The notes under the pieces are model-generated. The model did not search any database. It was not told the DNA's origin and saw only the letters and a program-made list of their open reading frames with translations. The position numbers and the translations under genes were made by a program. This document shows, in pieces, positions 3,688-45,284 of a stretch of 64,000 bases of DNA. Where the stretch lies: NCBI GenBank assembly GCA_032718475.1, contig JAUCBJ010008580.1:1-64000 (forward strand), given 5' to 3'. How positions within the stretch are numbered: position 1 is the stretch's first letter; every line of letters begins with the position of its first letter. Origin of the DNA: Nemertoderma westbladi (taxonomy: Eukaryota; Animalia; Xenacoelomorpha).

Positions 3688-3998
3688 ATGCATGGAGATG
3701 AAAGATGTTTGGTTTGTAATAAAGAAATGTGGGAGACAAGACAATCTATCACGTTATTTGGAAAGACATAGAAAGGATAAACTAATGGATCCTTTACCAA
3801 AGAAACTTAAAAATCTGAAGATATTTTTAGTGAAGATGAAAAGAAAAAGAGAGATGAGCGTGATATATTAAAGATAAAACAGACAATGGAAAATAAATTT
3901 CATAAAGTTATGAATATTTTGAAAGGATACAAAAACAGTTACCTTTATAAAATGAAGAAAATTTGAGTGAGAAAGATGAAGAAGAAGAGGACGATGAG
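3688..3998 (+). pseudogene. 5' part of a decayed intronless gene (one C2H2-type finger followed by an acidic region), split by the BEL insertion
   Basis: With one frameshift it reads CLVC-NKKCGRQDNLSR-Y-LER-H, i.e. C-x2-C-x12-(H>Y)-x3-H, then DEEEEDDE up to the TSD; it continues at 24920. Confidence 0.5.
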
Positions 3999-5158
3999 TG
4001 TTCGCGCTTTCAGACCTTTAGCAGTTTAACCCGCCAATTTTAGGTGTCCTCTTGTTTATAAATCGACTGTAGCCTATAACAATTATTTAAAGCACATGAA
4101 GTAACATTAGCCGAAGCCAGTCTATGCGCGATCATTCACCCACGGTTAAGGGAGACTGGATTCGGATGCTTTGAAGTGATTGCTGTGCAGACCTACGGTA
4201 TTATTCGATTGGTAGTTACTATATAATCTCTGACAATATTATTCACTTTCGGGGAAATATTAACAGTTCCTTTAGGACGTGGCGCTTTAAGTATAAAACA
4301 GAGTTATGACTTACACTAAACACAACGAGATGGCTATTGATTTTCGTAATTGGCGCATTCTTTAGGAGATGCTTTATTATCTGTTACACTTCTGCATACG
4401 ATTTCACACTGCTGCACACTGATCTGCCGACCGTCACTGAATTTAATCATATATAAGGAGGATAGCAACTGACACATGTAGGGCTTATGAAATAGCATTG
4501 AATGCACACAAAAAACACTGTAATGTAAGTCGCAATTGCTACCGGTAACCGGTCTCTCTAACCTTTGGTAATCAAGAAGATTGGGGTTTTATGATTATTT
4601 CTCGATATTCTCCAAATATAACAACATATCCATCAACAGGTAACAATTAATAACTGACAGTAAATAGCAGTAAAATAATGCGGTGAAATTGGTGCAGTTT
4701 GGATTGTTCAGTGTAGTGTGTTTGGTAATAGATTTACGCTTTTATAATCAAAGCCGTCTAATGTTGGCCAAAGTCTGAAACTTCCAACACAGAAGCACAG
4801 AATCATTTCCAAGCAGTTGTTCTCGCTCAGAAAGGTAAACAAAGACCGTCATGCATTGCGCGGTTTTCCGTAGGCCTCTGTGCAAAATAAAATGAAAATC
4901 GCTCTGATTGGTCGAGCGAGCCGAACAAAGGAAGTTAAGAAAGCTCCACATCGACATCAAATCAGCTGACAGATTTCGTCATCTGAACTACACTGTATTA
5001 AGAGTATTTGGCGTATTGCGGCATAAAATGGCTTGTTATGTCCGCTAAAACACCTACAGAGTACATTGTGGAGAAAATGGCTTGTTATGTCCGCTAAAAC
5101 AACTAAACAGTTCATTGCAGAGAAAAAATGACTGGTTATATCCACAAAAGCTTTTACA
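3999..5158 (-). repeat. BEL-1 3' LTR (type A, 1160 bp)
   Basis: Matches 23771-24919 apart from roughly 17 substitutions (counted by eye) and an 11-bp indel; PPT GGGAGCGG abuts it on the minus strand (5159-5166); ~52-bp tandem units at about 5018-5150. Confidence 0.96.
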
Positions 5159-5236: not shown

Positions 5237-6049
5237 TTAGTCTTTCTTACGCAGACGGCGTTTACGCAGTTTTTTGAGGCTAGCGAGAGTCCTTTTCTCT
5301 TTGGTGCGAGCCACTTTACTAGGAGGGCTATAACTCCTGGTTGAAGGGTGCAATACAATTGCATCGGAAGTTTTAGGATTACGGTCGGTGTATCCGCCGG
5401 TCGAGGTACCCGGTTGATCAATATCAATCTCAGTGGAGCGAGGTCGAACAACCTTCAGAGCGCGTTTCAGTACAGCAGCTCTTACTGGTCCCTGAAGAGT
5501 CGTTTGCACGAGAGCGGTGGGTAGACCGTGAGTAGTAAGAAATTTCCTCGGTTTGATAGTTCTTTCTAACTCGCGTTCTCGGGCTCTATATTCATAGGGT
5601 CATCTATGAACTTCCTGTAGTTCTGGATGCGAGTTGATGAACAAATCGCCATATTCTGGATCTCGACGAATGAAGTTGATCAAGTTATAGGAATTGAGAT
5701 CATTGGGATTAATGTTCCTAAGATATTTACGAACAAATTTGGTTGAAATACTCTCGCCAACACGCTTCATTAGTTCGTAACTCGGTATGCGAGATTTTTG
5801 TTCAACAGACGCGAATAGATAAGGGTGGAACGCATAAACTCCTTCGTAGGCGCGTCCAGGGTAATAGCAGTGACGTGACTCACAATGTAAATCCGCGTTC
5901 GCTTCCCAGGCTCGGACGTAGTGCATGGTAATCATTTCATCTACGCTTTCTAGATCGCGGTTGAAAGGGCAATCAAAACTTGCATGTCCTTTAAACTGAC
6001 AATGATGGCATTGAGTCTTAAATTGGGGGCAGACTGAGAAAATGTGCAA
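5237..6049 (-). pseudogene. Second, diverged copy of the C-terminus of the accessory ORF (zinc knuckle plus basic tail)
   Basis: ORFs 5600-6049 and 5237-5509 share a frame, separated by one stop, and align with 7836-8650 (CHHCQFKGHASFDC vs CHYCQLKGHESYNC). Confidence 0.9.
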
Positions 6050-6050
6050 G

Positions 6051-6536
6051 TTAGTGAGTTAGTTAGTTAGTTAGTGATTAATAAAATTTTCGTTATTGGT
6101 GATTTTGAGATCGGTGATTTCATTTTCGATGTCAGTTCTAATTTTTGGTTAAATCTGATCTGTCTGCCTGTCAGCCCGTTTGCCTGTCTGCCTGCTGTCT
6201 GCCTAGTATTAACATGCTAACATGATTAACACATAGGGGGTAAGTACAGTATCACAACCCTAAACATAACCGCAATACACTACAGGAAATGATACCGATA
6301 GTAAACTGCACGGAAGCTAATCTAAGCCTACTGTATATATTCTATAAGAAAATATAGGACATTTTGACAAGGGCAAAAGGGATAGAACTAGGGCAAAAAT
6401 AATAAATTTATCAAAAATATACAGTAGTTGCGTTTCGGTGTCTGAGCCCAGTACAGTACGCGCTAACCTCCGGAGACAAAGGCGCTAAATGACCGCAAAT
6501 TCCATAATCCCTGTGTTTAGTGGTTTGGGGGGGTGG
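6051..6536 (-). other. Foreign segment inside BEL-1 ending in a (TAAC)n tract; possibly the 3' end of a non-LTR element
   Basis: No similarity to the other BEL copies in the window; (TTAG)n run at 6051-6075 at the junction with the accessory-ORF fragment. Confidence 0.4.
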
Positions 6537-7756
6537 TGTTCGCGCTTTCAGACCTTTGGCAGTTTAACCCGCCAAATTAGAATGTCTTCTAGATAATAAA
6601 TCGCTTTTTAGTCTATGACAAGTATTTGATTCACTACACTAGTCGAAACCAATCCGTGCGCGACCATTCACCCGCTGGATATTCCCGGGAGATTGGGTTC
6701 GACGGTTTAATTTTTATTGCTATGTAAGCCTAATGTATTATTCGACTGACAGTACTATATAATCTCTGACAATATTATTCACCTTCGGTAATATTAACAG
6801 TTCCTTTAGGACGTGGCGCTTTATCTACATAAACAGAGTTATGACTTAAACTACTCACAACGATATGGCTTAATTATAATTCACATATATGGCGCATTCT
6901 TTAGGAATTGCTTCTTTAACAGACTCACTCATACACTATGCTGCACAATACTGCACACTAATCTGCCAATCTTCAATGATTTTAGTCACATATAAAAGGA
7001 ACACAGGCTGACTCATGTAGGGTCTATCAAATAACATTAGATTCACTTCAAACCACTTTAACATAAGTCACAATCGTTATTGGTAACCTTTCTCTCTTAC
7101 CTTAGGTATATCAAGAATATTGGGTTGCGGGGTTATTTATCGTTATTCCAAATATAATTATTCATCAACCATATTATGAAGAACTGACAGCAAATAGCAG
7201 TATAAAACAACAAGTCAGTACCGGTATGTCAGCAATGAGATATAGGCATGAGATATTCAAGTAGTCAGTTTGTTGCGTTAAAGGATATATGCCCTTTATA
7301 ATTAAACCTACTAGTGTAAGACTAAAAAGCAGTACAGCACAAAATACTTCCAAGCCGTTCTTTCTTTGGCTCAAGACTGAATGTAAACACTGCACATAGG
7401 CATTGCGTCATTTCTCGGAAATTTTCTGTACAAGGAGCCACAAAAACGCTCTCATTGGCTGACTGAACTGAGAGACGCCGTAGAACAAAGGAAATCAACA
7501 CGTATGAATGTCAGCTGTTAACTGTAGTCATAGTAACTACTGTTCAAGAGTAGCTATCACCCTTTTGCGTCACGAATTGCCATAGAATCATAAAATATGC
7601 CTTTCACAGTACACATACGGAGGAAATAGGTCTTAGATCCTCTAAAAACACCGATACAGCAATAATACGGTCTCTTACACTTATTAAATCAACTACAGAG
7701 TATTTTAATGTAAAAGATAATAAAAATAACGGGGCAATTCAGCAAAGGCTTTTACA
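6537..7756 (-). repeat. Internal diverged LTR (type B, 1220 bp) of a sister BEL subfamily
   Basis: Same termini as type A (TGTTCGCGCTTTCAGACC ... GCTTTTACA) and the same adjacent PPT, but clearly diverged inside, especially in the presumed U3 half. Confidence 0.9.
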
Positions 7757-7835
7757 CCGCTCCCAGAAAATGGGATTTTCAGTCTATAAAATATAAAAAT
7801 CACAGTTTCTAAAACACAAAGATACTCTAAAACAG

Positions 7836-10800
7836 TTAGTCTTTCTTGCGCGGACGGCGTTTACGCAGTTTCTTAAGATTAACCAGAGTCTTTTTCTCTT
7901 TGGGGCGAGCCACTTTACGAGGAGGGCTGTAGCTCCTAGGCGAAGGGTGCAATATAATTGCATCAGAAGGTGCAGGGTTACGATCGGTATAACCGCCGGT
8001 CGAGGTACCTGGTTGATTAATATCAACCTCAGTGGAGTGAGGTCTAACGGCCTTTAGAGCGCGTCTCAGGACAGCAGCTTCTACGGGTCCTTGACGGGTC
8101 GTCTGGACACTAGCGGTGGGTGGACCGTGAGTGGTGAGGAACTTTCTCGGTTTAATGGTTCTCTCCAGCTCGCGTTCTCGGGTTCGGTATTCATATGGGC
8201 GCCGAGATACTTCCTGGAGTTCAGGATGCGAGTTCACGAAAATGTCGCCATACGCAGGGTCCTGACGGATATAATTGATCAGGTGATATGTGGTTATATC
8301 ATTAGGATTAACGTTTCTCAGGTATTTCCTGACAAACTTGGTGGAAATACACTCACCAACACGCTTCATTAACTCGTAACTTGGTACGCGTGTTTTCTGT
8401 TCAATCGATGCGAATAGATAAGGATGGAACGCGTAAACTCCCTCGTAAGCTCGTCCAGGGTAATAGCGATGTCTGGATTCGCAATGTAAATCTGCGTTCG
8501 CTTCCCAAGCTCGGATGTATCGCAGGGTGATCATCTCGTCTACGCTCTCTAAATCGCGATTAAAGGGACAATTGTAACTTTCGTGTCCTTTAAGTTGGCA
8601 GTAGTGACATTGAGTCATAAACTGTGGGCAGACGGCAAATATATGAGAGTTATTAAGCCGGCAATAAGCACAATATATTTCCATCATCGGTTGTTCGAGG
8701 AAATAGGAACAAGGTACGCTCGAGTCGAGAGGAGTGAAGTGGTCTCTCGATGCGCATAATCGACAACGTTTTCGGGAAACGTAGTTGGCGTGTCGATAAT
8801 CGTACGCTGTGAGACGCTGGGGACCTTGATACCACTCTATGACATAATCATTGTCACTGCTCCGAGAAGCCGTAGGTTGAATCGCTTCGGATTCCAAGCA
8901 TACTGGTTCATCCTCCAGTTGCATAGACGAAGTTGGTGCGTCGGTTTCCGTAAGTGGACCCACTGTCTGTATTTCCACGACAGAATAACCTGTAGGTATT
9001 CGGGGTCTTTGTATAACGGATGAATGTGAGTTCTGTATACAAATGTCTTGAAACACGGCAAATCCAGCGCTACTCAGTTTCTCCGCAGCTGAGTCTCTAA
9101 GGCTGAGCTTGGTCAGCGCGCGATCTTTGAACTGACTATCGACGTTACGGAACGGAGTCAGAAAGCGCCGGAAACATTCGAAACGTATGAACTTATTGTG
9201 TTCGTCTAACTTGGCGAGTTTAGTTCCAAGTATTAAGGGATGGGTGCGTATAGTACGACTGCACACATCGGCTAGCCAACCGGCAAGTGCGGCGTTTTCG
9301 AAGATAGTGTATATAGCTAATGAGGGACGAAGTGGAACACTCATGAAGCTATACACGACGCCAGGTGCGGTTAGTGGTCCGTCGAAGTATAATCGAGAAT
9401 AATGGTCTCCATATACTTGTTGATAGTTGATAGGGTTTCCGACTTTGAAATTCCATCCGTATTCTTGAAAGGCAAGGTGTCCGATGGAGGTTCGTTGTAC
9501 TTTGTTGATGCCGCTGGGTGTATTGGCCTATGTAGTTCGGAAGAAACCTCGGCCTTCTGCCCAGGGAGCAATCAGCTGTGTATCTACGAAAGGATAAGGA
9601 ATATTCTCCATGTTCCTAAAGTCGTTTTGGAGATCTCCATAAACAGCTGAGCCGACTTTAAGGATTCTTTCGTTAAACAACATCTCGAGCACGGGCTGAT
9701 GTAACATCGATCCATCGATACCCATGGCCGGTTTGCGCTCGGTGTCGGTGACGTAACGCTGCGCGAGTTCGAATTGTCCATGTCGGAGTTTCTTTTGTAT
9801 CTCAGTGAGGGTCTCAAAAGAATAATCAATCACATCGGAACACGCTCGAGTAAATACGTGAGTAGAACCAGCTAGTCCTCGTATATGTATCATGCGCGTA
9901 GTTCCCAGTTCTCCAACCGGAACGCTACCTTCATTATCGTAAGTGACAACTCCATACATTTCGATAACGTTAAGAGTTTCGTTCCACTCCTTAGTGGCGT
10001 TTTCTAGGGTCATCCCCACTGGATGCCACAAGGTGGCGCATTCGCTAGAGTTAGGTAGATCCCTATACTTCAGATACTGTGTAGTATATGTCTCTACATC
10101 TCCATATCGTTGTATTCTCTCCTCCTCAAATAACACATCGAGGTTTCAGTGGACTAATCGAGTTTTGATAAATCCATCGAGATTATATGGAGGTATTATA
10201 TCCTTCTCTATTCTGGAAACATTGTAAGGTTTTCGGAATGAGTTTACTTTCACTAACTGATCCAGATGTTTCTGCAGTTGCTCGAGTTCGACAAGATCGA
10301 GAGGATTTATTAGTGGTAGAAACCTTAGACTATGTGTAGGATCTTCCGGTTTTACCATATAATATTGAGTTAGATTGACATAATAAGGGTGATCTTTGAT
10401 CCCATAAAACGAGTTCGGTAAAGGTCTAGCGCGTATGTTGACCTCATGTACCATACGATGGACAAGATCCGCTCGATTGTCCGGAGGTTCAACGAGTATA
10501 CCATCGACACGAGTGGCCTCGATTGGCGGACGCTGTAACATAGGAGCGTCAGCGATAAGATCTCGAGATCTTAGGTTGATATCAACCGGTTGGGGTTGTA
10601 CCGTTGCGAAGAGTTTATCTCCGAAATGGGGAACCATCGAGGGATGAATGATGGTTTTGGAGTAGAGATCCGTCATAAGGATTTGAGCTTCAGGTTGGGC
10701 TAAAGCTGCTTCTTCTCTTTCATCCATTTCGATTTGTTTCTCCTCGAGCTGATTTTCCTCCGCTTCTCGTTGTAAGCGTTCGTCTAAAAACTCTTGTAAA

Positions 10801-12073
10801 GAATAGGTTCGTCCAAGTTTGATGTCTTCCTTGAGGTTCTGGATTTCTCGATCGAACTGGGGTAAGGCCAACTCCTTCACCGCTTGGACTTGTTGCTGCA
10901 ACTTGCGTTTCTCCAAACAATCGTAAGTTCCTTTTCCGATCTTCTGTCGAATAGTGTCTAACGCGTTTCGTACAATGCTCTCCTCGACTTCGGTGACGGG
11001 TTGTATTGGGGTTAACCCAGGACGATTGTATGGGTTGAACGGCGATATTAGATGTCCGCGTCCTAATCCGGCTAGGTAGGATGGGCGAATATCCAGCGAG
11101 CCCACTACCGGAGTGCCACCGATTAATTGTTCGGGTAACACAAGATCCGTGAATAGTGAATACAGCTCAGGAGGATCCGTTATACTATTAGGATCAAGAG
11201 TTTGAGGTCTCACTAGGGAATGAGGAGGTCTGACTGAGTATTCCGGAACTCTGATCATGGGTTTATTCAAGGATCGTTTGAGTCGAGCGATCGTAGGTGA
11301 CACGTCGAATAAGTTTCGCTCGAAACTCCCGTAAGTATAGGGAGTAAAACTGTGTTTAGCGCAATGTCTCCGTGGATGTTTATGTCTTTCCGTTTGTTGG
11401 TTGGGTCTAGGGCATTCATCGCAATAATACCAAAGACGCACGTCCTGTAGAGGAAACGCGGGTGACCATTCTCCAGTTTTACAATATTCCTCCATCTGTT
11501 CGAAGGGACAACAGGTAGCGGTCGATCGGCGGTAAGATACATCATAGTGAAATAGAGCCGCTTGAGTTCTATCATAGGATCATGATGTATACCTTGAGGA
11601 TATCGAGTCTCTAGATTTTGTTGGCTGGCAATATTGAGATATGTTTCTCTCAAGAATTCCAGATATTCGTTGAAGTCACTGCGTTTATCCGGCTCTTCAA
11701 AGTCTTCTCTTTCGAGTCGGTTTCGAATAGAGTTCTCGTGTTCGATTCTCGGTTTGTCGTTCCGACTCCGCTGGGTATGATATTTAAAGAGAACCATTTC
11801 CCTTTCGGTGTCTACATCGTCCATATCGTGTAAATCGATAGGATGGCCAGTAGTTAAGAAGTCCATATACGCACCATTACGATGCGTATAGCGAGCAGTG
11901 AATTTTCTATAGTCCAATTCACGCGTGAGTTGTTCCTTGGACATGGGATAACGGCCATCGTCCTCAGTAGTAGAGGGACTAGTGTCACCGCGTATTAAAC
12001 TATCAACAAACGCTTGCAATGGTAGGGTATGTCGCTCTCTGATACCAAGATCATCTTCTATCAACTCCGTCAT
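7836..12073 (-). pseudogene. BEL-1 accessory ORF, about 1410 aa reconstructed: Cys/His motif, coiled coil, DEDDy 3'-5' exonuclease-like domain, zinc knuckles, basic C-terminus
   Basis: ORFs 10146-11495, 9528-10136 and 7836-9356 are one frame broken only by stops at 10146-10148 and 9528-9530; 11267-12073 joins through one frameshift near 11505. Motifs: VVTYDNEG, ILKVGSAVYGD, FVDTQLIA, SIGHLAFQEYGWNFK, PLRPSLAIYTIFENA, CHYCQLKGHESYNC. Confidence 0.85.
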
Positions 12074-12892
12074 AGCTGCTATAAGAGTTTATCAATATTA
12101 TAATTAATTATAATTAGGCTAGCGGGCGTCGCTGCCTACCCCTCATGGCCCCCGGACAGTGCAAGATCCTCAGCGCCGATATACTGTTGTCGCAGTGTCT
12201 ATCGCCAACGTAGTAGCTACACAACGACAACAATAACCAGCGCGAGTCACCCCACTGTCCGTCCCAAGGGCTTGGATTTACTTCAGGTTCTCATTGTAGA
12301 ATTAGGGCTACTTTCACAACTGCGACTAGCTACGGTAAACACACTTTAGTAGCAACATTCACCTATAAACGCACAAACTCCACACAACTGTCACAAATTG
12401 TACACATTCGGGCCATTTGTCCGTTAGTCAAGTGCCTTCCAGAATGCCACGTTATTATTATGTATCCTTGGATACTAGCAGTGCGCTATTTATTCCGTAT
12501 GCTATTCAATGGGGCAAGCTTTCTATTGTTCTTTTAACTCGCTTCTAATTCTAGCGTGGTTGTTGCTATGGTGACATTATGGAAAGCTAGCAGTAGAATT
12601 AGGGTAATTCTCATGCATACAGATCTGGGATGCTATTTAATAGTAATTCTTTAATTGTCAATATTCCCCTTTATACATGATTTTATGAATTTTATCGGCT
12701 ATTGACTATATATTGGAGATTCTTGCACACTAATATACTTAATACGGTGAATCTCCACTCCCATGATCTATTAATTAATGGAATTTTGGGAATGTTATAA
12801 ATTGTATAAAATAACAATTTATCAAATTCATGAAAGGATATGAATTTAAATTTATTCCCGTAAATTTTATTATTTAATATTAAATAGGCACA

Positions 12893-13280
12893 AATTTATT
12901 CCAGAGCATGTCTGGGAACTAGGATCCTTGATTCTAGGAAATTTGTCCTTTTAAGAGTATCGGTAAGTGCTACGATATCTTAATCGACTAGAATTTTTAA
13001 AGGATCTAAATTTTAACAGATTTTGCTTTATAAATTTTCTTGGTTCACAAACTCCTTAGAGTTTATTTGTATGCATTTACTCTATTATAACATTTGTTTT
13101 AATAGATTTTTATAAATATTAACTATGTAATATTTAAGATCGGCACCGATTTATTCCAGAACATGTCTGGGGACGTTAACCACAGATTCTAGAACTTTGT
13201 CTTTCAAGTATATCGGTGGGTGCCGCGATATCTTAATCGACTAGAATTACAGATGGTCAAAGGGTTTAACAGATTTATTT
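12893..13280. repeat. Two imperfect ~130-bp direct repeats in the pol-accessory ORF spacer
   Basis: ATTTATTCCAGA...CGATATCTTAATCGACTAGAATT...TTTAACAGATTT near 12894 and 13149; both also present at 43855-44240. Confidence 0.8.
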
Positions 13281-13803
13281 GCGTTGTACGCTACTGTTAA
13301 AGGGACATCACGCTACTATATGTATTATTTAATATATGGTATGAGAGCAATATTGCAAGAAGCAATGTCAGTGAGAAGAGGCAAGTCGTTTCCAAGGTCT
13401 ACCCAGAGCTTGGTTTAGCCGAGACACGAGGATCTGAACTTTGCATTCCTAATACTCTACTTACCAATAATACTTGAGTATAGTAGGAGCTTTATTGTAC
13501 TTTAATAAGTACGGATATTTCATCTTACTGTAGTCACGTATTTATAATATGATACGGACAGTAAGGAAAGAGAAAATAATTATTTCTCGCCATTACGCTA
13601 AATGCATATAATATAAGTAATTAAGTAATAAACGCGAATATATATTGCACTAATTCTACTAAATAACCACTAAAATAACATTCTACTAAATAAAATTAAA
13701 GAAAATGATTATTATAAAATTACATAATAATACATACCTAAATATAAAAATAATAAAAAAACGAATATAAAATAATATGGTCACACACCCACTCCAGACG
13801 CTA

Positions 13804-16800
13804 TTATGTTGGGGAGTCCCTAGATGTCTGTTGGATTAGGGAGGTGGTCGTGGGAAGAGTATCTTGCCTTCCATAGTTTCCGGACAGTTCTCTGTCTCTC
13901 TCCACTAAACATAAACGACCAACTGGGCGATTGAGCTGCTGCGTCTCGAATACAATTCCCGGTTTCTTAAAGTTACGTCGCATGGCGACGAGTTCTACCG
14001 ATCGATCGCACTAAACCGTCATCTGAGATATGAGTCTCGATGAAACAACCTGTCTGCCACCGCTTACGTGGAAGATCTGTTTCCACAATAAGGACCATGT
14101 CTCCGGCGCTGACGTTTTCTTGCTGCGCAAACCACTTGGTTCGAAGTTGTAGCGTGGGCAGATAATGTTTTTCGAAATGGTCAGCGAAACGACGGGATAA
14201 TAACTGCATAAGTTGCCAAGTTTGTTGGCAGTATTCGTCTCCGTCCGTGATTTCCGATCGTGGGAGCATGGCTACAGGTTTCTTCAGTAGGAAGTGCGCG
14301 GGTGTTAGCGCTTCCAGGGAGTCGGGACTCGATGAGACTGGCATAAGCAGTCTTTCGTTAAGATAGGCGGCGATTTCTTCCATTAACGTCCGCAAAAGTT
14401 CATCGGTGAGATACGCGCGGCACGGCACTATAAAGTGAAATGCGGTCTTCACGCTTCTTATTAATCTCTCCCAACATCCTCCCCACCAAGGGGCATCGGC
14501 GGCGTTGAATGTCCAGCTAGATGCTGTTACTCTTAGCTGATCGTCCACCTGTCTTTGGTTCCAATCTCTAACGTAAGCCTCGATCTCATTATTGGCGCCA
14601 ATGAAGTTCGTTCCCTTATCCGATCTCATCATGTTGCTAGTTCCAAAGCGAGCGATCTGTCGGCGTAGACTCAGTATGAAGCTGTTGGTAGATAGATCGT
14701 TCACCATATCTAAATGGATCGCTCTACAAGTCATACAGACAAAGATGACACACCATCGCTTGACTATAGTCCTGGCACGATATACTTCAATAGGGCCAAA
14801 TAAATCCACACCGGTATTAGTAAAGGGTGGTTCATAGAAGCTTACTCGTTCCTTAGGTAATTCTGCCTCTCGCTGTGTTAAAGGCCTACTGAATGCTTTC
14901 CTACAGGGTATACAGTTCCTAAGAACTTGGTTCAGAGCTCTACGGGGTTTATGAAAATAATAGCGAGTTCGAATTTCGCTAAGAACTCGTTCTCTACCAG
15001 CATGGTAAAGCTTACTGTGAACATCTACAATCATCTTGATTTGTATTTCAAGATTTCTAATGAGTATGGGAAACTTAGTGTCAAAGGATAATGGAGCATT
15101 AGTTAGTCTCCCTCCAACACGTATTAACCCATCTATCATTGTGCTAGAGAAACGATCCCTTAAGCGCATCTGTGGATTTCTCAACAACAGGAAATACTTA
15201 TCGGAATCTTCATAGCATTGCAGGAGTCTCAGTATCTGCTTATTGGTTTCTTCATGCTCCTGGTAACTGATCTTCTCCATCAGAAACCTATCTGAGATTT
15301 TATATTTGGGAAGATCTTTAATAGCATGGACCTGCACAGATGTCAGTGGAGCGGTATCACTAGCGATCTTCGTCCTGGAGTAGTGATAATGGAAGCATCG
15401 CTTCAAATACGCAACGGCCTTACAAAGCTGATTCCAGGAGCTATAGTGATGTATCGCTCTCTGTAGGAGAGGTGAGAGTCCCTGTGAAACGTCTGGTGTT
15501 CCCGATTTCCAGTCTCTCTCTCTGATTTCCACAACAGACTTATTTGTGGCAGGGGAGTTTAGATCCACAGTGTCGTCTCCGGAAATATGTAGTACAGACA
15601 GATCTATCACGGTTAAATAACTTCGATTTACTCGTCCGGGTTTTAGGTTTGACTTTCTCCGCTCCCTTGGCTTGTCTAATCTCAGCCGTGGTGAGATGAG
15701 GAGGCCATTCATCTTCTTCTTTACTATGGAAGTCGGGTCCACCTAACCAGTCCGGAGTGTCTACCAGTTCTTGAGGAGTTGCTCCTCTGGAGGCGATGTC
15801 GGCTGGATTAATCATCCCAGGGCAATGTCTCCATTGATCTACACTAGTGCGACTAAGTATAACGGCTACTCTGTTGGTAACGAAGATGCTGAACTGACAG
15901 ACTTCATTGGTTATATACTCCAAAACGAGTAAAGCATCAGTCCAATAGACAGTTTTCTCCAGTGGATAGTCGATCTGTTCTGTGACATTCCGGCCGATAG
16001 CTGTAGCGTATAGAGCCACTTTTAACTCCGCTCGAGGAACTCGTAGCTTGTTGTTTATCAAGGCCTTAGAGGTAACCAAGGCGACTTTAATTCCATCCGG
16101 AGTTTCAACTCTCAGGTAGGCTACTATACCTATTCCCATATCGCTGGCGTCCCAAACACATGGAGTTGATAGGAATACGTGGGGAGAACATGACCAAAAT
16201 ATGAACGGGAAATTATAAAGTTCTCGATGGATGGTAGAGCATCCCACGAGTGGTTTTCAAGCCACATTTGTTGAACTAAACTCCGAGCGACCAATATAAC
16301 TGAGCTAATAAATCCCAATGGATCGAAATAAGTGCTCAGGATACTTAGACAAATCCGTTTAGTTCGAACTGGATTATCTCGCTGTTTTAGCTGGAAAAAC
16401 AGGATATCTCTCTCTGTGTCCCATTTCAAACCAAGCGTCTTGGTTTCTGGAAGATTGTCTTTGATTAGGTCCAGGTCTTTAACTCCTCAGTCTTCTACCG
16501 GGATCGATTCCAGAAACTCACGGGAGTTACTGGTGAATTTAGTTAGTCGAAATCCACCACGTTTCAAACACTCTACCGTTCCCTTGGCAACATCAATGGC
16601 TTCTTCCACCAATGGGAGGGACTTTAAATTATCGTCCATGTATATATCCCGTTTGATGTTGTCGATAACCGCTTTAGAGAAGGCGTCTCGGTTGTCATCA
16701 GCAGTGGTGCGCACTACTGAACAGGCATTCGAGGGGCTCGAGATGATTCCGAAAGCCTGGATGGTCATCCAGTACTCCACAGGTTTTTGGCTGAGGTCTC

Positions 16801-19800
16801 CTTCAGGCCACCACAGAAATCGCAGGCTGTCTCGATCCCTATCCAGCGCCTTAACTTGTAAGAACATGCCTTCTATATCTGAGGCGAAGGCGATCGAATA
16901 TTGCCGTAATCTTAAGAGTATTCCCAACAAGGATTGGAGTAAGTTGGGTCCCGGCAACAACTCCGAATTAAGGGATTGGCCCATGTAAAGGACGGAGCCG
17001 TCAAATACCAGCCGAACTTCGTTGGGTTTACCGGGTTTGGGAACGTAATGATGGGTTAAATAATACATTCTCTCAGTTATGGGTGTTTCTTCCGGTACTC
17101 GCTCCGCATATCCCTTATCGATGAATTTCCTCAACTGTGTCTTGTACATCTCTTTAGACCAATTTCATACCTCCCTTGATCCCTAAGGAAACGTGTAGTC
17201 GTTGCCTGGATCTGCTTGGCTCTTTCCTCCTCGACTGATAGTGCTTTGTCGTAGGAATTAGGCTCTACTGCTTCTTGAGTAAAGAATCGTACGGCGTGTT
17301 CGTCGCGAATCTTTGCATTATGTCGATCTATCACCTCATTTAACTCATCGTCATAATTGAGTTGTCCGCCATGATGGACGAGATGGCAAAGGTGCACTTG
17401 GTTTCTCCAAGCTTCACTTTCAGTGAGGAGGTCTATCGTATTTTCCTCGTCAAATAGCTGGGTAATATCGTCGTTATCTGAGGAGTATGGTGTTCCCTCA
17501 GGTGTGATTTCTCCCTCACTGATTTCTTCTTCCCATTCACTCACCTGATGCACTTGTTCAGTGGGTAATCTTTCCATGAGCGTTCTATGAGAAGGTCCAG
17601 TGAAGTACCAACCTACTCTAGTTCTTCCTGCATAGGTTTGCAATGGTTGCGGTCGAGCAGGTCGTTTCTCTAATGTCTCAAGCGCCTCATGCGCATTTTG
17701 GCCGATTAAAATTTGCACCCCTGTGTTGAATCGGTGTTGAATCTAGGGATATTATGTTGCTGGGTAAAATCGTCTTCATCCCAGTTGTAAGGTTCTACTT
17801 GGCTGGTAGCAAAGTTCTTTATCGCCACCATTTTTACTGACCTTATACTGTGTTCTCCTAGTTCATCTTGGGGAGTGGACAACGCACCTACATAGTAGTC
17901 TGTAGCTACGGTAGATTTCTAAACCTGCATAATTCCTGAAAGGTTCAACTTAGTTCGGAACTTGGGTTGTCCTGCAAAGATGTCCCCGGCTAGTTCTTTA
18001 TCGATGAACGTTCCTGTGCTGCCGGAGTCCAAGAGTGCGTTGACTATAAAACTCTTACTCAACCCATGGACTCTTAGCTGAACTACGGGGAATTCCCGGA
18101 TTCAGACGTTGGAAGTTGGTGCTTTCCAAGATGGTTGTCGGTCAGGAATAGCCGGGTGCGCTTCGTTATCGGTTTCAGTCTCATACGTAAGCGCTTGATA
18201 CACCGCTGTGTTTATTAGATAACAGGATTCGTTTTCGTCGGAGAATTCATCCGTGTAGAATCCTTCCATCTCAGAACTTTGGTCAGTGTCGTTCACATCA
18301 CTGAATTGGACATGTAGTTCGGACTCACTTACCTGACTCAGGCTGTTTCTTTCAAATTCGGTGTGCAACAAGATATGATGTTTCGCGCCGCACTTAGCAC
18401 ACCTCGCATCAGAGTAACAGGTTCGCCGTTGGTGTCCTTGTCTGAGACAATTATAACACAACCGCTTATCCCACATGACATCACGTCTATCCTTTAGGGA
18501 TTTCTTTAAGAATTCATCACACACACTTAAACGGTGGGGCCCGTCGCACAATGCACATTTTGGTTTGATGTTACTTACTTTACCTTGGGTAATGTTGTGC
18601 ACACTCGTTCTTTCCTCGGGCTTTCTTCCATGAATTCTCTTAGGAGACGTAGGAGGAGTTTTTGTTACCTGTTCTCTCCTGTCACTAGTTCGAGATTTAA
18701 ATTTACTTACATCCTTAGGCGCTTTGTTGACATAGTAAGATCTTTCGGTGTCTTTCCCGTTGCTCCCCTCTTGAGAGGTCTGGCTTTCACAGTCGTCTGT
18801 ATAACACACTGGTGTTACCTTTCTCCTAGAAACGGGTTTTTCACTTACCTTATTTTCCGGTGTCTTCTCTCTGGACTGCTTTAGGAGCTGTAATTTTACC
18901 TCTCCATCTAAGAATGACATGAGATCAGCCATGGTAGGGTCTCTTCGTTGTTGTTACATCATATATAGAACTCTTTTGTCCCAACGAGTACCTACTCCAC
19001 CCTTCGGCAAGGTAGATGCTACAGCTCCAATAACCATAGAACTCTGATACTCATGAGACTTACCTAGCCAATCTAATTGTCTACAAATCTCCTGGATCTC
19101 ATCGGAAAATTCTATAATCCCGCTGCTAAGAAACTTTCGTGGCGCTACCAATTTCGCATACAAATACCTAGCTATGTTATTCCTATTACCATACCTGATG
19201 TTTAGTGTATCCCAGACTTGTCTTAATCCCTCTGGATGTCCAATAAACTTTAACGCCATTAACTTGGGAGATCCTTCCAAGCACTCGATGAGGAATCTAA
19301 GTTTATCTCCATTAGATAGCACAGAGTTCTGTATGTTATCTTTATAATATTCATTAAAAGGTAACAATTTTATCTCATCTCCGTTGAACTTGACGATCTC
19401 TCCCACCTTTACCACTTGTTGGGCTTCGGTTCTAGCCATTTGACGCGTAAAACTTTCTTGGGCCATCGTATTATTTAATATCGAGTTATCGGTATATAAA
19501 TTTCTCGGATTAGGATCAGGTCTATATGGGATATCATTATCAACAGGTTTATCGTTACCCTTAATAGGGTTTACTATAGGAGTTTCTACTTCACTAGCAG
19601 TATAGATGCGTATAGGCTCCACACCTTGCGCATAAAATACTTCAGACCTAACAGGTTGACACATTGTTACAGGGGGTGGTGTTATACCCCTTTGTATATT
19701 TACTAATTTATCGCGTTCTAACGCGATACTCTGCTGCACTTCTTGCAGTTCTAACCTACCCTCTCTTACTGTTCCCTTTAACTGCTGCACAGTCCCTTCC

Positions 19801-21794
19801 ATTTCTCGGACGTGTTGGGAGGAACGGATGCGCTGTTCCTCCAATTGTCCGAGCAGGAGATCCATCCCCCGCCGTCCCTCATCCACCCACTCGACCGCCG
19901 AAGCGGGAGCCGCCAACATAGTAGCGGGTAGACGAGGGACGACGGGTGATAAATCATTGATGTCTCGCTCGGCGTCCAAGACTGGGACTGTTTCTGCGGC
20001 TATTTTATTGGGCACAGGTAATTTAGTACTGTGTAAAGGGAATTTAGAGTTAGGTTCTGGAAGTACAGGTATCTCCATCACCAAAGGGGTGGCTTCGAGA
20101 ACAGGCCTAATTATTTCAGGCTCATCTACTATAGTAGGGAGTCTTTCTACTCTAATAATTTGGTCTGTGGGTTCTGTACTACCTAAGTCTGCTATAGCTA
20201 GTTGCCTTCTCACAGCTGGGGGCAAATTAGGCAATTTCTGATGGTGAGGCATTCTTCTACATCTGCAGGAACGAGATCTATTTCCTCCACCTTCAGGATC
20301 TGTTGTATCGCCTTCATCAGATGATGTAAATCCCTGTCTCTTGGGAGTAGATCGACTTATCATCTGCATATACTTAGCTGTTCTTTGTTTATTGAAGTGA
20401 TCTTGCTTCTCTTGAAGATTTTCCAACTCTAGTTGGACTGTCTCTTCAGATGCTCTCCGTTCTGCTGCTGCCACCGCCTCTGCTGCTTTTCTTTCTGCTT
20501 CTGCCGCTGCTACCTTTCTTTCAGCCTCTGCCTCTGCCTCTTTTCTTTCTGCCTCTGCCGCTGCCACTGCAGCTGCTGCTTTTCTTTCAACTTGTGCCGC
20601 TGCCGCTGCTGCTGTCTTTCTGTCTTCTATCCGTTTTTTCTTTAATTGTTCTTCCTGTTCCCTAGCGATAAGGATGCTTTCATCAAATTTAGCCTGTTCT
20701 ACGGCTAACATTTCCGCATCTAATGCGTCTAACACAAATTTGGCTCCCTCAGTAGTAGGATGAAGTCCAGATAGTCGTCTCCTTAGCTCTTTGTCGCCTA
20801 TAAATCATTGATAGTCCGACAGATAGATGTCAATGGCGTCCTTCTTCTGAGGTTTCTCTAATGTAACCTCGCTTTCCACCTGAGAAAAGGTAGCGTCTGT
20901 AGATTCTCCGTGGGTCGAGCGCTCAGTTAGCTGAATTTTCCATTGGGTAGTCCCTTGGACTTTAAGACTCACCCGTTGGAACCAGGTCTTTACGGCAACT
21001 TGCAACGACGTGTCTTGGCTTTTTTTCGAGGCTTCCTCAAAGGCTGATAGTATTAGTCGGATTCTTAAGATACGTTCTCTAACTTGATAAAGCAGCTCTC
21101 CCTGCTGTTGAGGTCCTTGGGGTTGTTGAAACAGTTGTTCTTCCAATCGCTCCAAAGAGCTGAAGAATCCCTGTACATATCCTGCTGCCGACCTCTTCCA
21201 CACAGCTGGATCTCTAGTGTCCTTTACCACTCCCATCCTGTATAAGTCTTCCCAGGCAGCTTCCGACAAGTTAAACGGGAGTCCAGGTCCGGGGAAGTTC
21301 CATTGCGTCTCGACAATAGACTTCAGTTCCTCTATTGTGTATCCCGCATAACTGACCTTGGTCGTTCGCTTACTTCTCGCCCAATCAATTTGGTGTTCCT
21401 CCACTGCAATCAATACTCTAGTGAGTACGGCTTCAGGAAGAATGAGAAGTGGATCCGAATAAACTGCATCTGCCATCTTTGCTCGGCGCTCGGGTGTCAA
21501 CTCTACCGTATCTGAGCTACCGGAGCTATCGGGCCGCTGAAAAATAAGTTCTCGGCTCGGGTGTTGCTGCTGTTTAACAGCTGCCTCTTGGTCCCGCTTG
21601 ACTTGAGCCCGAGTGCCTATGATAGACCTACGGTGCTTTACTAGCCTAGGGTCTGATACTACTACTGAAGGGATGACCTTTCTTACAGTAGGAGGGGACT
21701 TGAACTTCGGTCTCAAGCATTCGGTACTCCTGTCGGAGTCGCATACTGTTCTTTCTAGGAGACTATCTGACAGAGTTTGCTTTGTGTCAGCCAT
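13804..21794 (-). pseudogene. BEL-1 Gag-Pol polyprotein, disrupted by stops and frameshifts
   Basis: Gag KFNGDEIKLLPF and knuckles CYNCLRQGHQRRTC, CAKCGAKHHILLH; protease LLDSGS (~18030); RT ASDIEGMFLQ and YMDD; RNase H DAS and NPADIASRG; integrase GVDLFGP, RSDKGTNF, WERLIRS. Confidence 0.95.
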
Positions 21795-21924
21795 GTTTGA
21801 TTGTACGATTGAATGCCTACTACTATAACGACAGTTAAAGCAAGTCTAGTAATTCAGTATCAACTGTTAGCCTAGTAATTAATTACCGATATCGTTACTT
21901 AATGTAACGCGATATATATATAAT

Positions 21925-22190: not shown

Positions 22191-23770
22191 ATTATTTTAG
22201 AATAACTGAATTTCTGAATTTTAGGGTTACTTTTCTTTACTTTGTTACTGTTATTAAGCAGTAGTCCAACTGATATTAAGACCTAATTGATGTATGACAG
22301 GCCTACTACTTTATAAATCGGTTTGAGTTGATTTATAATATATATATACCCTTATAATGGGTTTTTGACAATATTTGAAATAAATGTTATTATTTCTGGT
22401 AAGGAGTCACTACACAGAAGCTGAACGCTCTCAGTGAAGTGCTACTTATTGGACACTAAAACAAATAATTCTACTTGACTAAGTTACTTATTACTACAAA
22501 TTACGTACAATTACAGGGTGAGATTACAATCTCTAGATAAATACAAAAATTACACGTACAAATTTTTTAGGGTAATTTTACAGGAAATCTACAAACCAGC
22601 CTAACAAGGGTTAGAATTTCTGGTTTATTCAACGGACAGGATACTACGGTATTTGAAAATAATTAAGCAGTAGTAAATAAATTGCGTTGTCCAGATAAGA
22701 AAATACCACCGTCTGACGACTTATAGTCTTTAGCTGTACAGCTCTATAAGTACTACGTTATGTACCCGTAGTGTTCCTACCTAGAAGTTAATTACCGCAG
22801 CCAACCAGAGCTAACTTGCCTATTAACCACTTTATAACACAAATATACTGCCTACACACTAATTACCTTCGGAAAGTATTGTACACTAAACCCTAAATTA
22901 GGTACAAGTACTTATACAACAAATAACCAGCAGTTAAATATACTTGTACAGCTAAAAGAACCACGGCATCTGCTGGAGTGACTAGAGCATAAAATCACCA
23001 GTCTTTACCTACGCCAAGCAGCCCTGATGCAGTACCGGGGTTAATTTAACTATAACGGTATGTATAACAAGCACAATTACTGTAGGAATAAACTTGGGGA
23101 GTTATGTATGTTGCGAATACTCGCAAATACTCTGAATAATAAATAAATACGCTACCCGTACAGACTACACAAACAAAATACAAACCAAACGCTGGCATAC
23201 TACTATCAAGCCTAAATAAACTACAGTATATGCAGACTCCGAAATGGTTAGTTAGTATGCGTTCTAACCGAGTAGCACGACTTATTCTTTCGGGGGGGAT
23301 TTACCTTACAGCACTGGATGCCCCCACCTTCCTAAGTAGTACTTTATCGGACATACACTCTACACACACTGCAATCTCTTCAGACTCAACAACAGTCAGA
23401 CAACAATCCAGCCTACAAATTATTTGTACAATCTGAGCAGGCTTACACACCCTCTGCTCAATATTACACTTACAAATAAATAAAACTGACAGAAATAAAT
23501 AAGCTCTAAAAGAAACAAGGGGTGTACAGTACAGTCCCTAATCTCTTAAACAGCCTACCTATATACAATATCACAATCGAAATAATACTGGTACCGGTAA
23601 GTACCGGTTCGGGTGGTTAGGTAGTTAGGCCTACAGGTTACCGTCCGACTGGTACAGTCGAATTTATTGCCTACGTGCAATCAAAACATAAAATCTATTA
23701 CTGTTCTTACCAGAACAGTAGACAACTGTATTTGATGTCTGCTCTGCAATCAGAAACTGAAATCTATTAC

Positions 23771-24919
23771 TGTTCGCGCTTTCAGACCTTTAGCAGTTTA
23801 ACCCGCCAATTTTAGGTGTCCTCTTATTTATAAATCGACTTTAGCCTATAACAATTATTTAATGCACATGAAGTAACATTAGCCGAAGCCAGTCTATGCG
23901 CGATCATTCACCCACGGTTAAGGGAGACTGGATTCGGATGCTTTGAAGTGATTGCGGTGCAGACCTACGGTATTATTCGATTGGTAGTTACTATATAATC
24001 TCTGACAATATTATTCACTTTCGGGGAAATATTAACAGTTCCTTTAGGACGTGGCGCTTTAAGTATAAAACAGAGTTATGACTTACACTAAACACATCGA
24101 GATGGCTATTGATTTTCGTAAATGGCGCATTCTTTAGGAGATGCTTTATTATCTGTTACACTACTGCATACGATTTCACACTGCTGCACACTGATCTGCC
24201 GACCGTCACTGAATTTAATCATATATAAGGAGGATAGCAACTGACACATGTAGGGCTTATGAAATAGCATTGAATGCACACAAAAACCACTGTAATGTAA
24301 GTCGCAATTGCTACCGGTAACCAGTCTCTCTAACCTTTGGTAATCAAGAAGATTGGGGTTTTATGATTATTTCTCGATATTCTCCAAATATAAAAACATA
24401 TCCATCAACAGGTAACAATTAATAACCGACAGTAAATAGCAGTAAAATAATGCGGTGAAATTGGTGCAGTTTGGATTGTTCAGTGTAGTGTGTTTGGTAA
24501 TAGATTTACGCTTTTATAATCAAAGCCGTCTAATGTTGGCCAAAGTCTGAAACTTCCAACACAGAAGCACAGAATCATTTCCAAGCAGTTGTTCTCGCTC
24601 AGAAAGGTAAACAAAGACCGTCATGCATTGCGCGGTTTTCCGTAGGCCTCTGTGCAAAATCGCTCTGATTGGTCGAGCGAGCCGAACAAAGGAAGTTAAG
24701 AAAGCTCCACATCGACATCAAATCAGCTGATAGATTTCGTCATCTGAACTACACTGTATTAAGAGTATTTGGGGTATTGCGGCATAAAATGGCTTGTTAT
24801 GTCCGCTAAAACACCTACAGAGTACATTGCGGAGAAAATGGCTTGTTATGTCCGCTAAAACAACTAAACAGTTCATAGCGGAGAAAAAATGACTGGTTAT
24901 ATCCGCAAAAGCTTTTACA
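23771..24919 (-). repeat. BEL-1 5' LTR (type A, 1149 bp)
   Basis: Direct repeat of 3999-5158, flanked by TSD ATGAG. Confidence 0.96.
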
Positions 24920-25581
24920 ATGAGATGGAGAATGAAAATAGTGAGGGTCAGGATGAAGTTGAAGAGAGTGATGTTGAGAATGAAGAAAGTGAAGATCAGG
25001 AAGAGGATGAAGAAAGTGAAGATCAAGAAGAGGGTGAAGAAAGCAAAGGTCAGGAAGAGAATGAAGAAAGTGAAGAACAGGAAGGGGATGAAGAAAGTGA
25101 AGAACAGGAAGAGGATGAAGAAGAGGAAGAGGAAGAGGATGAAGGAAGTGAAGGTGGGGAAGAGGATGAAGAAAGTGAAGGTCAGAAAGAGGGTGAAGAA
25201 AGTGAAGATCAGGAAAGTGAAGAATAGGATGAAAATGTTGATAATGAGGAAATATTGCGACAACTACTTGAAAATAAGATTAAATTGCAGAAAATTATTA
25301 ATCATTTGAAGGAAAATGAAGAAAATAAAGAGGTGACATTGACCCAAGTTCTAGGAAGTAAAATTAAATTACATAAATTTATTAAATATTTAGAAGAGAA
25401 TGAATAAAGAAGAGATATTGAGGCAAATATTAGTAAACAAAAATCAAATGCGGAAATTTATTAAACAAATAGAAGAAAATGAAGAAAATTGAGAAGAAAT
25501 ATTAACACAGGTCCTGGTAAATAAAAGTAAATTATTGAAAATTAATGAACAATTGAATAAAATTAAGAAACAGTTGGTTAA
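24920..25581 (+). pseudogene. Continuation of the decayed acidic-protein gene; Glu/Asp-rich 27-bp tandem coding repeat
   Basis: EESEDQEED-type repeats at about 24980-25225 continue the DEEEEDDE run cut at 3998; after removing the TTAA element it resumes at 27178 (QLV/NEEDESKENQPSF). Confidence 0.55.
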
Positions 25582-40208: not shown

Positions 40209-43200
40209 TGTTCGCGCTTTTAGACCTTTAGCAGTTTAACCTGCCAAATTTAATTGTCTTTTTGTATATCAATTATTTAATGTACTGAAGTTACATCAGC
40301 CGAAGCCAGCCTGTGCGCGACCATTCACCCATAGTTAAGGGAGACTGGATTCGGATGCTTTGATAGTGATTGCAGTGTAGACCTACTGTATTATTCGATT
40401 GATCGTTAATATATAATCTCTGACAATATATTCACTTTCGGGGAAATATTAACAGTTCCTTTAGGACGTGGCGCTTTAAGTATAAAACAGAGTTATGACT
40501 TATACTAATCACAACTGGATGGCTACTGAGTTTCGTAAAAAGCGCATTCTTTAGGAGATGCTTTATTAACCTTCACACTACTTCACACGACTTCACACTA
40601 GTTCACACTACTGCGCACTGATCTGCCGACCGTCACTGAATTTGATCATATATAAGGAGGATCGCAACTGACACATGTAGGGATTATGAAATAGCATTTA
40701 ATTCACACAAAAACCACTATAATGTAAGTCGCAGTTGCTACCGGTAAACCTGTTCCTCTAACCTTTAGTAATCAAGAAGATTGGGGTTTTTATGATTATT
40801 CATCGGTATTCTCCAAATATATCAGCAATATACACCAACATAACACCAATTAATAACAGAATCAAATAATGCGGTGAACAGTCAGTATGTGTTACTTATG
40901 CAGTGTTCCATGTGCAGCAATGCATGAATTGCGGTGTGATGCGGTAGTTGAATCGCGTTGCGTAGTGCCGCGTTAATAGTTTTACGTTCTTGTAATCAAA
41001 GCCATCTGATGTTTCTGATGTTTAGGTCAAAGTCTGAAACTTCCAACACAGAAGTACAGAAGAATTTCCAAGCAGTTCTCTCGCTCAGAAAGGTAAACAA
41101 AGACAGTAAGGCATTGCGTGGTTTTCCGTAGGCCTCTGTACAAGATAAAATGAAAATCGCTCTGATTGGCCGAGCCTGAACAAAGAGAGGCTCCACGTGT
41201 ACAGTAAATCAGCTGGCAGATTTCGTCATCGGAGTTCCAGTCTTTTAGAGTATTAGGCGTATTGCGTCAGAAAATGGCTTGTTATGTCCGCTAAAACACC
41301 TACAAGGTACATTGCGGAGAAAATGGCTTGTTATGTCCGCTAAAACAACTACACAGTTCATTGCGGAGAAAAATGACTTGTTTTATCCGCAAAAGCTTTT
41401 ACACCGCTCCCAGAAAATGGGATTTAATTCTATAAAATATAAAAAATCACAGTTTCTAAAATATAAAAATACTCTAAACAGTTAGTTCTTCTTACGTGAA
41501 TGGCGTTTACGCAGTTTTTTGAGGCTAGCAAGAGTCCTTTTCTCTTTGGGGCGAGCCACTTTACTTGGAGGGCTATAACTCCTAGGTGAAGGGTGCAATA
41601 CAATTGCATCAGAAGGTTTAGGGTTACGGTCGGTGTATCCGCCGGTCGAGGTACCCGGTTGATCGGTATCAACCTCAGCGGAACGAGGTCGAACAACCTT
41701 GAGAGCGCGTTTTAAGACAGCAGCTCTTACTGGTCCCTAACGGGTCGTTTGCACAAGAGCGGTAGGTGGACCGTGTGTAGTAAGAAATTTCCTCGGTTTG
41801 ATGGTTCTTTCCAACTCGCTCTCGGGCTCTATCGGAATCGATATGCTTCTCCTCGAGCTGATTTTCCTCCGCTTGTCGTAGGAAGCATTCGTCCAAAACT
41901 CTTTCAGAGAGTAGGGTCGTCCAAGTTCGATATCTTCTTAGAGATTCTGGATTTCCCGATTAAACTGAGATAAAGCTGATTCGTTTACCGCTTGGACTTG
42001 CTGCTGCAATTTACGTTTCTCTAAACAATCGTAGGTTCCTTTTTCGATCTTTTGTCGAATAGTGTCTAACACGTTTCGTACAACTCTCTCCTCCACCTCG
42101 GTGACAGGTTGTATCGGGGTTAAACCGGGACGATTAGACGGGTTGAACGGCGATATTAAATGTCCGCGTCCCAATCCGGCTAGGTAGGATGGGCGAATAT
42201 CTAGGGAGCCCACAACCGGAGTGCCACTGACTAATTGTTCGGGTAACACTAGATCTTTGAACAATGAGCACAGCTCAGGAGGATCCATCATACTATTAGG
42301 ATCAAGAGTCTGAGGTTTCACCAGGGAATGAGGAGGTCTGACCGAGTATTCCGGAACTCCAATCAGAGGTTTATTTAAGGATCGTTTGAGTCGAGCGAGC
42401 GTAGGTGATAAGTCGAACAAGTTTCGCTCGAAACTCCCGTAAATATAGCAAGTAAAACTGTGTTTAGCGCAACGTCTCCGCGGATGTTTATGTCTTTCCG
42501 GTCTGTTGGTTGGGTCTAGGGCATTCATCGTAATAATACCAAAGACGCACGTCTTGTAGGGGAAACGCTGGTGATCTTTCTCCAGTTTTACAATGTCTCT
42601 CTCAAGAATTCCAAATATACGTTGAAGTCACTGCGTTTATCCGGTTCTTTAACGTCTTCTCTTTCGAGTTGGTTTCGAATAGAATTTTCGTGTTCGATTC
42701 TCAGTTTATCGTTCCGACTCCGCTGGGTATGATATTTAAATAGGATCATTTCCCTTTCGGTGTCTACATCGTCCATATCGTGTAAATCGATAGGATGGCC
42801 AGTAGTAAAGAAGTCTATATATGTACCATTACGATGCGTATAGCGAGCGGTGAATTTTCTATAGTCCAATTCACGCGTGAGCTGTTCCTTTGACATTGGC
42901 GGTTCGATATAACGGCCATCGTCCTCCGTAGTGGGTGGACTAGCGTCGCCGCGTATTAAACTATCAACAAACGCTTGCAATGGTAGGGTATATCGCTCCC
43001 TGATTCCAAGATCATCTTCTATCAACTCAGTCATAGCTGCTATATGAGTTTATCGATATTATAATTAATTATAATTTAGGCTAGCGGTCGTTGCTGCCTC
43101 CCCCTCAATGCCCCCGGACAGCGCAAGCTCCTCAGCGCTGATGTACTGTCGCCGCTGTGTCTATCGCCAACATAGTAGCTACACAATGACAACAACAACC

Positions 43201-45280: not shown

Positions 45281-45284
45281 GCTT

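Follow-up and report, generated by a model that had tools for sequence, protein, structure and literature searches.

The window analysed here, a stretch of 64,000 nucleotides (nt) from Nemertoderma westbladi (contig JAUCBJ010008580.1), contains on its minus strand a large BEL/Pao-type retrotransposon with a third gene following gag-pol. This third gene is a real, selected, non-env gene of a BEL/Pao lineage, which is broken in the present copy. It comprises a domain that very probably derives from the DEDDy nucleases (RNase D/WRN-type exonuclease-like) and for which we infer an RNase H-like fold. With somewhat less than even confidence, the gene is tentatively read as encoding a likely RNase D-type 3'-5' exonuclease with CCHC knuckles, predicted to trim the 3' ends of single-stranded RNA to the benefit of the element. 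This reading is supported by the position after pol, the same linkage in a further copy and a further family, the purifying selection on the flanking parts, and the presence of three of the four catalytic acids together with the tyrosine.

On the minus strand, the third gene consists of four stop-to-stop frames with lengths of 273, 477, 205 and 563 amino acids (aa). The last three lie in the same frame, which shows two stops per 1247 codons. Since the N-terminal frame overlaps the second piece in a different frame, a frameshift is located at about 11440-11515. Read from the first ATG at 12073 to the stop at 7836, with an X put at the stops and the frames left unjoined at the frameshift, the gene comprises approximately 1412 aa. 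In 1000 shuffles that kept the composition, the longest run free of stops showed a median of 108 and a maximum of 224 codons, compared to 563 and 477 codons in the real sequence. The initial annotation had merged the four open reading frames (ORFs) into one gene with two stops and one frameshift and had placed it sense to pol, between pol and the polypurine tract (PPT), and both statements agree with these results. A PPT and a long terminal repeat (LTR) begin about 70 nt past the gene end, but this LTR is an internal third one, 79% like the outer pair. An env reading of the gene was ruled out, since its protein contains no transmembrane-like segment (best 19-residue hydropathy 1.27), as had been noted before, and no glycoprotein match in Pfam that would indicate a transmembrane anchor or a fusion-protein family.

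The proposed linkage of a non-env third gene to BEL elements was tested in the window, where a copy from the same family that lacks an internal part shows the same layout and another BEL family has a related gene after pol (Table 1). The ORF following pol in the second family matched the N-terminus of the third gene with a local score of 76, which was reached by 0 of 2000 shuffles (32% identity over 66 aa). A further match of Cys and His residues between the families past the frameshift was borderline, 91 of 2000 shuffles reaching its score, and was left uncounted. For the ORF of the second family, the ESM Atlas gave no usable match. The pol of this family also contains a 12-nt tandem array, which separates RNase H from integrase at about 60342-60746.

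The N- and C-terminal parts of the third gene are under purifying selection. The ratio of nonsynonymous to synonymous substitution rates (dN/dS) between the copies in the window amounted to 0.09, 0.14, 0.15, 0.17 and 0.16 in five out of five comparisons (Z 3.3-6.1), and to 0.11 for an in-frame pol control. Contigs of all four runs (4/4) covered every one of the 30 bins between 6400 and 14200 and contained many variants, which a high-copy family leads one to expect. At the first internal stop, all four runs carried another letter at essentially full depth, and this stop is therefore private to the present copy. Among the 40 listed of 1687 differences, which do not include the second stop or the ExoIII codons, 27 fell into the range of the main frame. 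The stop row and three rows located upstream of the frameshift were left out; of the 23 differences that remained, 16 were synonymous.

All motifs quoted in the initial annotation were found on the minus strand, with YDNEG at 9927-9941, VYGDL at 9630-9644, FVDTQ at 9576-9590, SIGHL at 9474-9488, the knuckle motifs CRLC, CAYC and CHYC at 8598-8765 and KKLRKRR at 7854-7874. The zinc knuckles it had described are present as three CCHC-like motifs. Out of the 18950 families of NCBIfam only two were reported for the protein, both being RNase D (TIGR01388, E=0.0024; PRK10829, E=0.02) with matches at profile positions of about 60-109. BLASTP against the RNase D of E. coli gave an ungapped alignment spanning ExoII to DTQ (E=0.001), and rnd was the better of two rows in a tblastn search of plasmids (E=4). 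Following the RNase D hint, a DEDDy profile was made from 14 exonuclease domains of RNase D and polymerases. With this profile, the ORF containing the domain ranked first among 71 targets of the window, and its score of 5.2 bits exceeded 1000 of 1000 shuffles (maximum 1.7), with an alignment comprising only ExoII to DTQ.

Other searches were less productive. The rows in PHROGs showed only E=0.05-0.24, and tblastn of phages gave no match. Word-seeded homologue searches yielded nothing, either for the exonuclease region (near and shorter lengths) or for the N-terminal two-family alignment (longer lengths), and no locus with the third gene or its relatives was found in scans of viral and metagenome contigs. 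The AlphaFold models were of low confidence, with a predicted local distance difference test score (pLDDT) of 29.8 for the single sequence and 32.3 for a two-row alignment. With such a model, Foldseek returned no row with E<=0.001 (rank 1 was EXD2, E=0.9, TM 0.17), and in VIA the match was confined to the last helix. The DEDDy-type assignment of the initial annotation is borne out in part: the likeness to RNase D and WRN is moderately supported by the NCBIfam match and by the homologue described below, whereas Pfam adds nothing to it and the structure searches weigh neither for nor against it.

A HMMER search over 1.84 billion representative proteins resulted in a single match (E=3.7e-4), a protein of 648 aa designated P0002. 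It is a natural, unbroken homologue from a contig of 9449 nt. In pairwise comparison with the third gene, its exonuclease domain gave an E of 9e-12 and its knuckles one of 3e-5. P0002 retains DxE, KVGS..D, DTQ, RT.(L/I)GH, NFK and PL-x6-Y-x3-EN, and it shows the same order as the third gene, in which the exonuclease-like part is followed by a disordered linker, then by three CCHC knuckles and finally by the basic tail. On the DEDDy profile it reached 19 bits from ExoI to DTQ (maximum shuffle 5.4). A two-sequence profile of the third-gene domain and P0002 obtained a probability of 90.5% in the local mode of hhalign (E=1.3e-6, 48 columns) and of 34% in the global mode. In the ESM Atlas, 24 of 30 matches to the P0002 domain are annotated with PF01612 (score 0.94), the family being present on 34% of members; the top six matches are unannotated, and the nearest named clusters are PF01612 proteins, mostly from plants. 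The top clusters for residues 25-285 of P0002 (0.94-0.95) consist of unannotated eukaryotic proteins of 213-214 aa, from Basidiomycota where known, and are possibly stand-alone relatives of the exonuclease-like domain. In a sequence search of the Protein Data Bank (PDB), the matches of P0002 were limited to knuckle proteins.

It is very unlikely that the exonuclease likeness is due to chance or reflects a degenerate remnant, with the gene encoding some other accessory protein or a host passenger. Such an origin would be in line with the weak and local direct matches, the low-confidence folds and the empty homologue searches and locus scans. It would not account for the agreement of separate libraries on the family, for the fitting order and spacing of the motifs, or for their conservation in a remote homologue, and a passenger is difficult to reconcile with the selection and with the sharing between two families.

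The comparison of the active site with the reference columns showed the D-x-E of ExoI and an Asp in ExoII that is followed by DTQ. For ExoIII, two PL-x6-Y candidates were found 14 residues apart, and neither has an Asp at Y+4. The PL...Y of the initial annotation is therefore present twice, while the missing fourth catalytic Asp had been overlooked. P0002 strongly prefers the register with Glu (24 vs 1; 8/27 identities). Since the fourth Asp is absent, the domain is DEDDy-like and not canonical and its activity is uncertain, so that either a variant or an inactive enzyme may be present.

Several observations weigh against an active exonuclease. The Y-x3-D occurs in 14 of 14 references, and the window domain has no Asp in either register; the bacterial references slightly prefer the register with Ser (summed score 60 vs -26, n=14). 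The direct profile matches span only 44-48 residues (ExoII-DTQ) and lie far under the curated cut-offs. For the window protein, neither Pfam nor the PDB sequence searches gave an exonuclease; for P0002, an exonuclease was obtained in Pfam only with E=0.2, and no exonuclease family was found in NCBIfam. As the copies in the window lack the exonuclease part, the dN/dS values are silent on this domain, and the main frame is informed only by the 23 listed differences, 16 of them synonymous. Furthermore, Egalitarian keeps all five residues, of which none is needed for RNA binding or function (bioRxiv 10.1101/2025.08.03.668247).

A real if lesser possibility is accordingly a nuclease-derived RNA-binding adaptor with little or no catalysis, which could serve the export, localisation or packaging of genomic RNA in a Rev-like manner. 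The absent Asp of ExoIII would be explained, the knuckles and the basic tail suit RNA binding and nuclear shuttling, and the 1.9-kb spacer, being 94% conserved, could hold a response element. Precedents are known, since Egalitarian, EXD1 and Exuperantia use exonuclease-type domains as RNA-binding modules without catalysis (same preprint). On the other hand, the bdelloid ORF3s also show a D-to-E change (DEED) and are read as possibly active in PMC5408684. The present domain keeps D, E, D and Y, and an acidic residue in fourth place, across about 30% identity. Dead domains usually retain fewer catalytic residues.

If the third gene encodes an RNase D-type exonuclease, the knuckles would hold single-stranded RNA while the exonuclease domain would trim its 3' end. 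The analogy is to the trypanosome RNase D (TbRND), in which RNA binding comes from a C-terminal CCHC domain that also enhances cleavage (PMC7797062). The Glu at ExoIII would still bind metal, and the basic tail would drive nuclear import. The third gene would be expressed from a separate, probably spliced message, as is typical for the bdelloid ORF3s (PMC5408684). The likeliest targets, which are a guess, would be small RNAs of the host or transcripts of the element itself. We consider it unlikely that an active RNase D variant of this undescribed lineage of giant BEL/Pao elements, with Glu at ExoIII and CCHC knuckles, degrades or mis-trims host Piwi-interacting or small interfering RNAs. If true, an LTR retrotransposon of an animal would carry an enzymatic silencing suppressor, and its lineage may in addition prime without tRNA. 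Since the family is high-copy in its host, small-RNA data could reveal such an effect.

The outer LTRs of the element show 97.6-98.5% identity, and identical 5-nt sequences flank them; the insertion therefore spans 20.9 kb. In Pfam, gag-pol matched Peptidase_A17 (3e-9), DUF1759 (3e-9) and DUF5641 (7e-16), and the element is thus of BEL/Pao type, as initially proposed; by LTR, duplication, PPT and gag-pol domains it is assigned to BEL/Pao (Belpaoviridae). The broken gag-pol is colinear with that of the unbroken second element, in the order gag, protease, reverse transcriptase, RNase H and integrase. Typical traits in the BEL/Pao profile of the International Committee on Taxonomy of Viruses are a primer-binding site (PBS) for tRNA-Arg/Gly, a size of 4.2-10 kb and an env-like third gene (PMC8742986). 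These typical, non-defining traits are not seen here: no TGG-type PBS follows the 5' LTR, the element is about twice the family size, and the third gene is not env-like. The spacer between pol and the third gene (12089-13972) is a possible regulatory or RNA-structure region. Between 3999 and 7756, the gene end and a PPT are followed by the diverged LTR; after 478 nt of unique sequence come another gene end, a further PPT and the 3' LTR. This three-LTR copy is probably a recombinant of two subfamilies and has the look of a template-switch chimera that was inserted as a unit with a single target duplication.

At the position of the PBS, 11 nt directly past the 5' LTR are exactly complementary to an 11-mer within the LTR, which directly follows TATAAAA and was found in 15 of 20000 shuffled LTRs. 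The motif recurs 69 nt downstream, and the sister LTRs differ at the site of the 11-mer. Such complementarity to the LTR also occurs in the self-priming Tf1 and Tj1 (PMC4600332), to which this BEL site is likened. By analogy, a Tf1-type self-priming is possible; a title-level literature search gave nothing on self-priming BEL elements. Such unusual priming might be served by a particle enzyme acting during reverse transcription, which would trim the 3' ends of primer or cDNA in a WRN-like or proofreading manner. This role for the third gene is quite unlikely. The unusual priming site, the doubled size of the element, the PF01612 proteins as nearest named Atlas clusters and EXD2 as (not significant) first Foldseek rank would agree with it. 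However, the gene is separate from pol at a distance of 1.9 kb, and Tf1-type self-priming is known in elements for which no such gene is mentioned in the accessible part of PMC4600332.

Table 1. Coordinates of the BEL/Pao element, its third gene and related copies in the window.
Feature	Position	Strand	Remarks
Third gene, N-terminal frame, first ATG 12073	11267..12088	-	true part stops near frameshift ~11440-11515; 32% over 66 aa to gene of second family; dN/dS 0.16
Third gene, second piece, Cys/His cluster and acidic helical stretch	10146..11579	-	bounded by first internal stop 10146-10148; dN/dS 0.17 over 205 codons
Third gene, third frame, 205 aa	9528..10145	-	stop-to-stop frame; second stop 9528-9530
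Third gene, fourth frame, 563 aa	7836..9527	-	stop-to-stop frame
Probable RNase D/WRN-type exonuclease-like domain	9270..10000	-	broken by second stop 9528-9530; from profile and homologue comparison
ExoI D	9936-9938	-	aligned to reference column
ExoI E	9930-9932	-	aligned to reference column
ExoII D	9633-9635	-	aligned to reference column, DTQ follows
ExoIII Y and E, Y-x3-E register	9309-9311, 9297-9299	-	shared with P0002
ExoIII alternative Y and S, Y-x3-S register (PLT-x5-Y..S)	9351-9353, 9339-9341	-	PL-x6-Y candidate
Three CCHC-like zinc knuckles	8568..8765	-	spacing of first atypical; three at same place in P0002
Conserved C-terminal region with Pro/Ser/Thr-rich stretch; basic tail at 7839-7874	7836..8567	-	stop 7836-7838; 82% aa identity to fragment 5279-6058; dN/dS 0.09
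Target-site duplication, right copy, 5 bp	24920..24924	.	identical 5 nt at 3994-3998
5' LTR, 1149 bp, TG..CA	23771..24919	-	97.6% (blastn), 98.5% over aligned columns vs 3999-5158
Candidate self-priming site, 11 nt at PBS position	23760..23770	-	complement of LTR 24497-24507 (also 4725-4735)
gag-pol, several stops and frameshifts	13973..21845	-	DUF1759, Peptidase_A17, Integrase_H2C2, DUF5641
Non-coding spacer, pol to third gene, internal ~135-nt repeats	12089..13972	-	94% identical in deleted copy 43050-44926
PPT	7757..7764	-	adjoins internal LTR
Internal third LTR, sister subfamily	6537..7756	-	79% to outer LTRs
Second partial copy of 3' end of third gene, last knuckles to tail	5279..6058	-	one internal stop; 82% aa identity to 7836-8567
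3' LTR	3999..5158	-	preceded by PPT at 5159-5166
Target-site duplication, left copy	3994..3998	.	matches 24920-24924
Internally deleted copy, same family	40209..45280	-	pol piece, spacer, third-gene pieces without exonuclease part, PPT, LTR; order kept
Second BEL family, unbroken gag-pol, 2947 aa	53758..62601	+	38-46% pol identity to first
Second family, start of post-pol gene related to N-terminus of third gene	63277..63999	+	continues beyond window edge

Apart from the BEL elements, the window contains a Gypsy-type element at 31111-37292 with 425-bp LTRs that are 99% alike and gag/pol frames at 31743-36856. Two non-LTR reverse transcriptase copies, which we take to be RTE-like by motif, lie in opposite orientation at 524-2136 and 45255-46541 with flanks of 89-92% identity. 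A nested inverted-repeat cluster is located at 49288-50054, its arms being 85-89% complementary.

The initial annotation had named only env-like glycoproteins as extra BEL/Pao ORFs, and the novelty of the gene was overstated. RNase D-like DEDDy ORF3s are described after pol in the bdelloid Juno/Vesta and Athena/Terminon elements (PMC5408684, Rodriguez et al. 2017) and are also treated in PMC6431247 and PMC6338049. With the ORF3 of Juno and Vesta, the present gene shares the non-env third ORF, the RNase D-like DEDDy domain, the lack of a transmembrane segment and one D-to-E change. In contrast, the host is here a BEL/Pao element. Juno and Vesta are gypsy-type. Moreover, the altered acid is the fourth one (DEDE) compared to the bdelloid DEED, which is not found here as ExoII contains an Asp. 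At about 1410 aa, the gene is also larger and has three knuckles, a basic tail and an extended N-terminal region; for the bdelloid ORF3s, no CCHC knuckles are described in the accessible part of PMC5408684.

The closest domain combination is that of TbRND (PDB 7c42/7c45), which shares the RNase D-type domain, the linker and the tandem CCHC fingers, a combination called very unusual in PMC7797062. TbRND, a cellular enzyme of mitochondria, has four fingers and a 28-aa linker and trims the U-tails of guide RNAs, whereas the linker has about 170 aa here and the ExoIII Asp is missing. Since no sequence match to TbRND was found in the PDB sequence searches with the window protein and P0002, the likeness is an analogy and probably convergent. 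With Egalitarian, EXD1, EXD2, WRN-exo and Mut-7, the domain shares the order DxE, KV..D, DTQ, (S/G)L..L and PL..Y and insertions in matching loops, and this group has RNA-binding or small-RNA roles in animals. To our knowledge, these are host genes without CCHC knuckles.

According to PMC8742986, BEL/Pao elements contain gag and pol and, if any further gene, an env-like one, within 4-10 kb. The BEL/Pao third genes named in PMC8742986 and PMC13524379 are env-like. Those of Roo (F-type) and of mosquito elements (Chuviridae-like gB) share the place between pol and PPT; compared to them, the content is unrelated, without transmembrane segment or glycoprotein, and the element comprises 20.9 kb instead of 4.2-10 kb. 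An exonuclease is not mentioned in the accessible main texts of PMC3118150, PMC6238403, PMC8556966 and PMC13524379, and the literature search, the scope of which excluded Repbase, Dfam, GyDB, subscription journals and supplements, found no BEL/Pao exonuclease gene. New are therefore the BEL/Pao host, the large size, the TbRND-like knuckle fusion and the altered fourth acid, while DEDDy third genes themselves were already known. The unbroken P0002 makes the question of nuclease or adaptor testable. Altogether, a selected exonuclease-plus-knuckle gene of about 1400 aa, with a related gene in a second family about 40% alike in pol, extends the DEDDy-like capture to a second LTR superfamily, which suggests that animal retroelements have recruited RNA 3'-end enzymes more than once.

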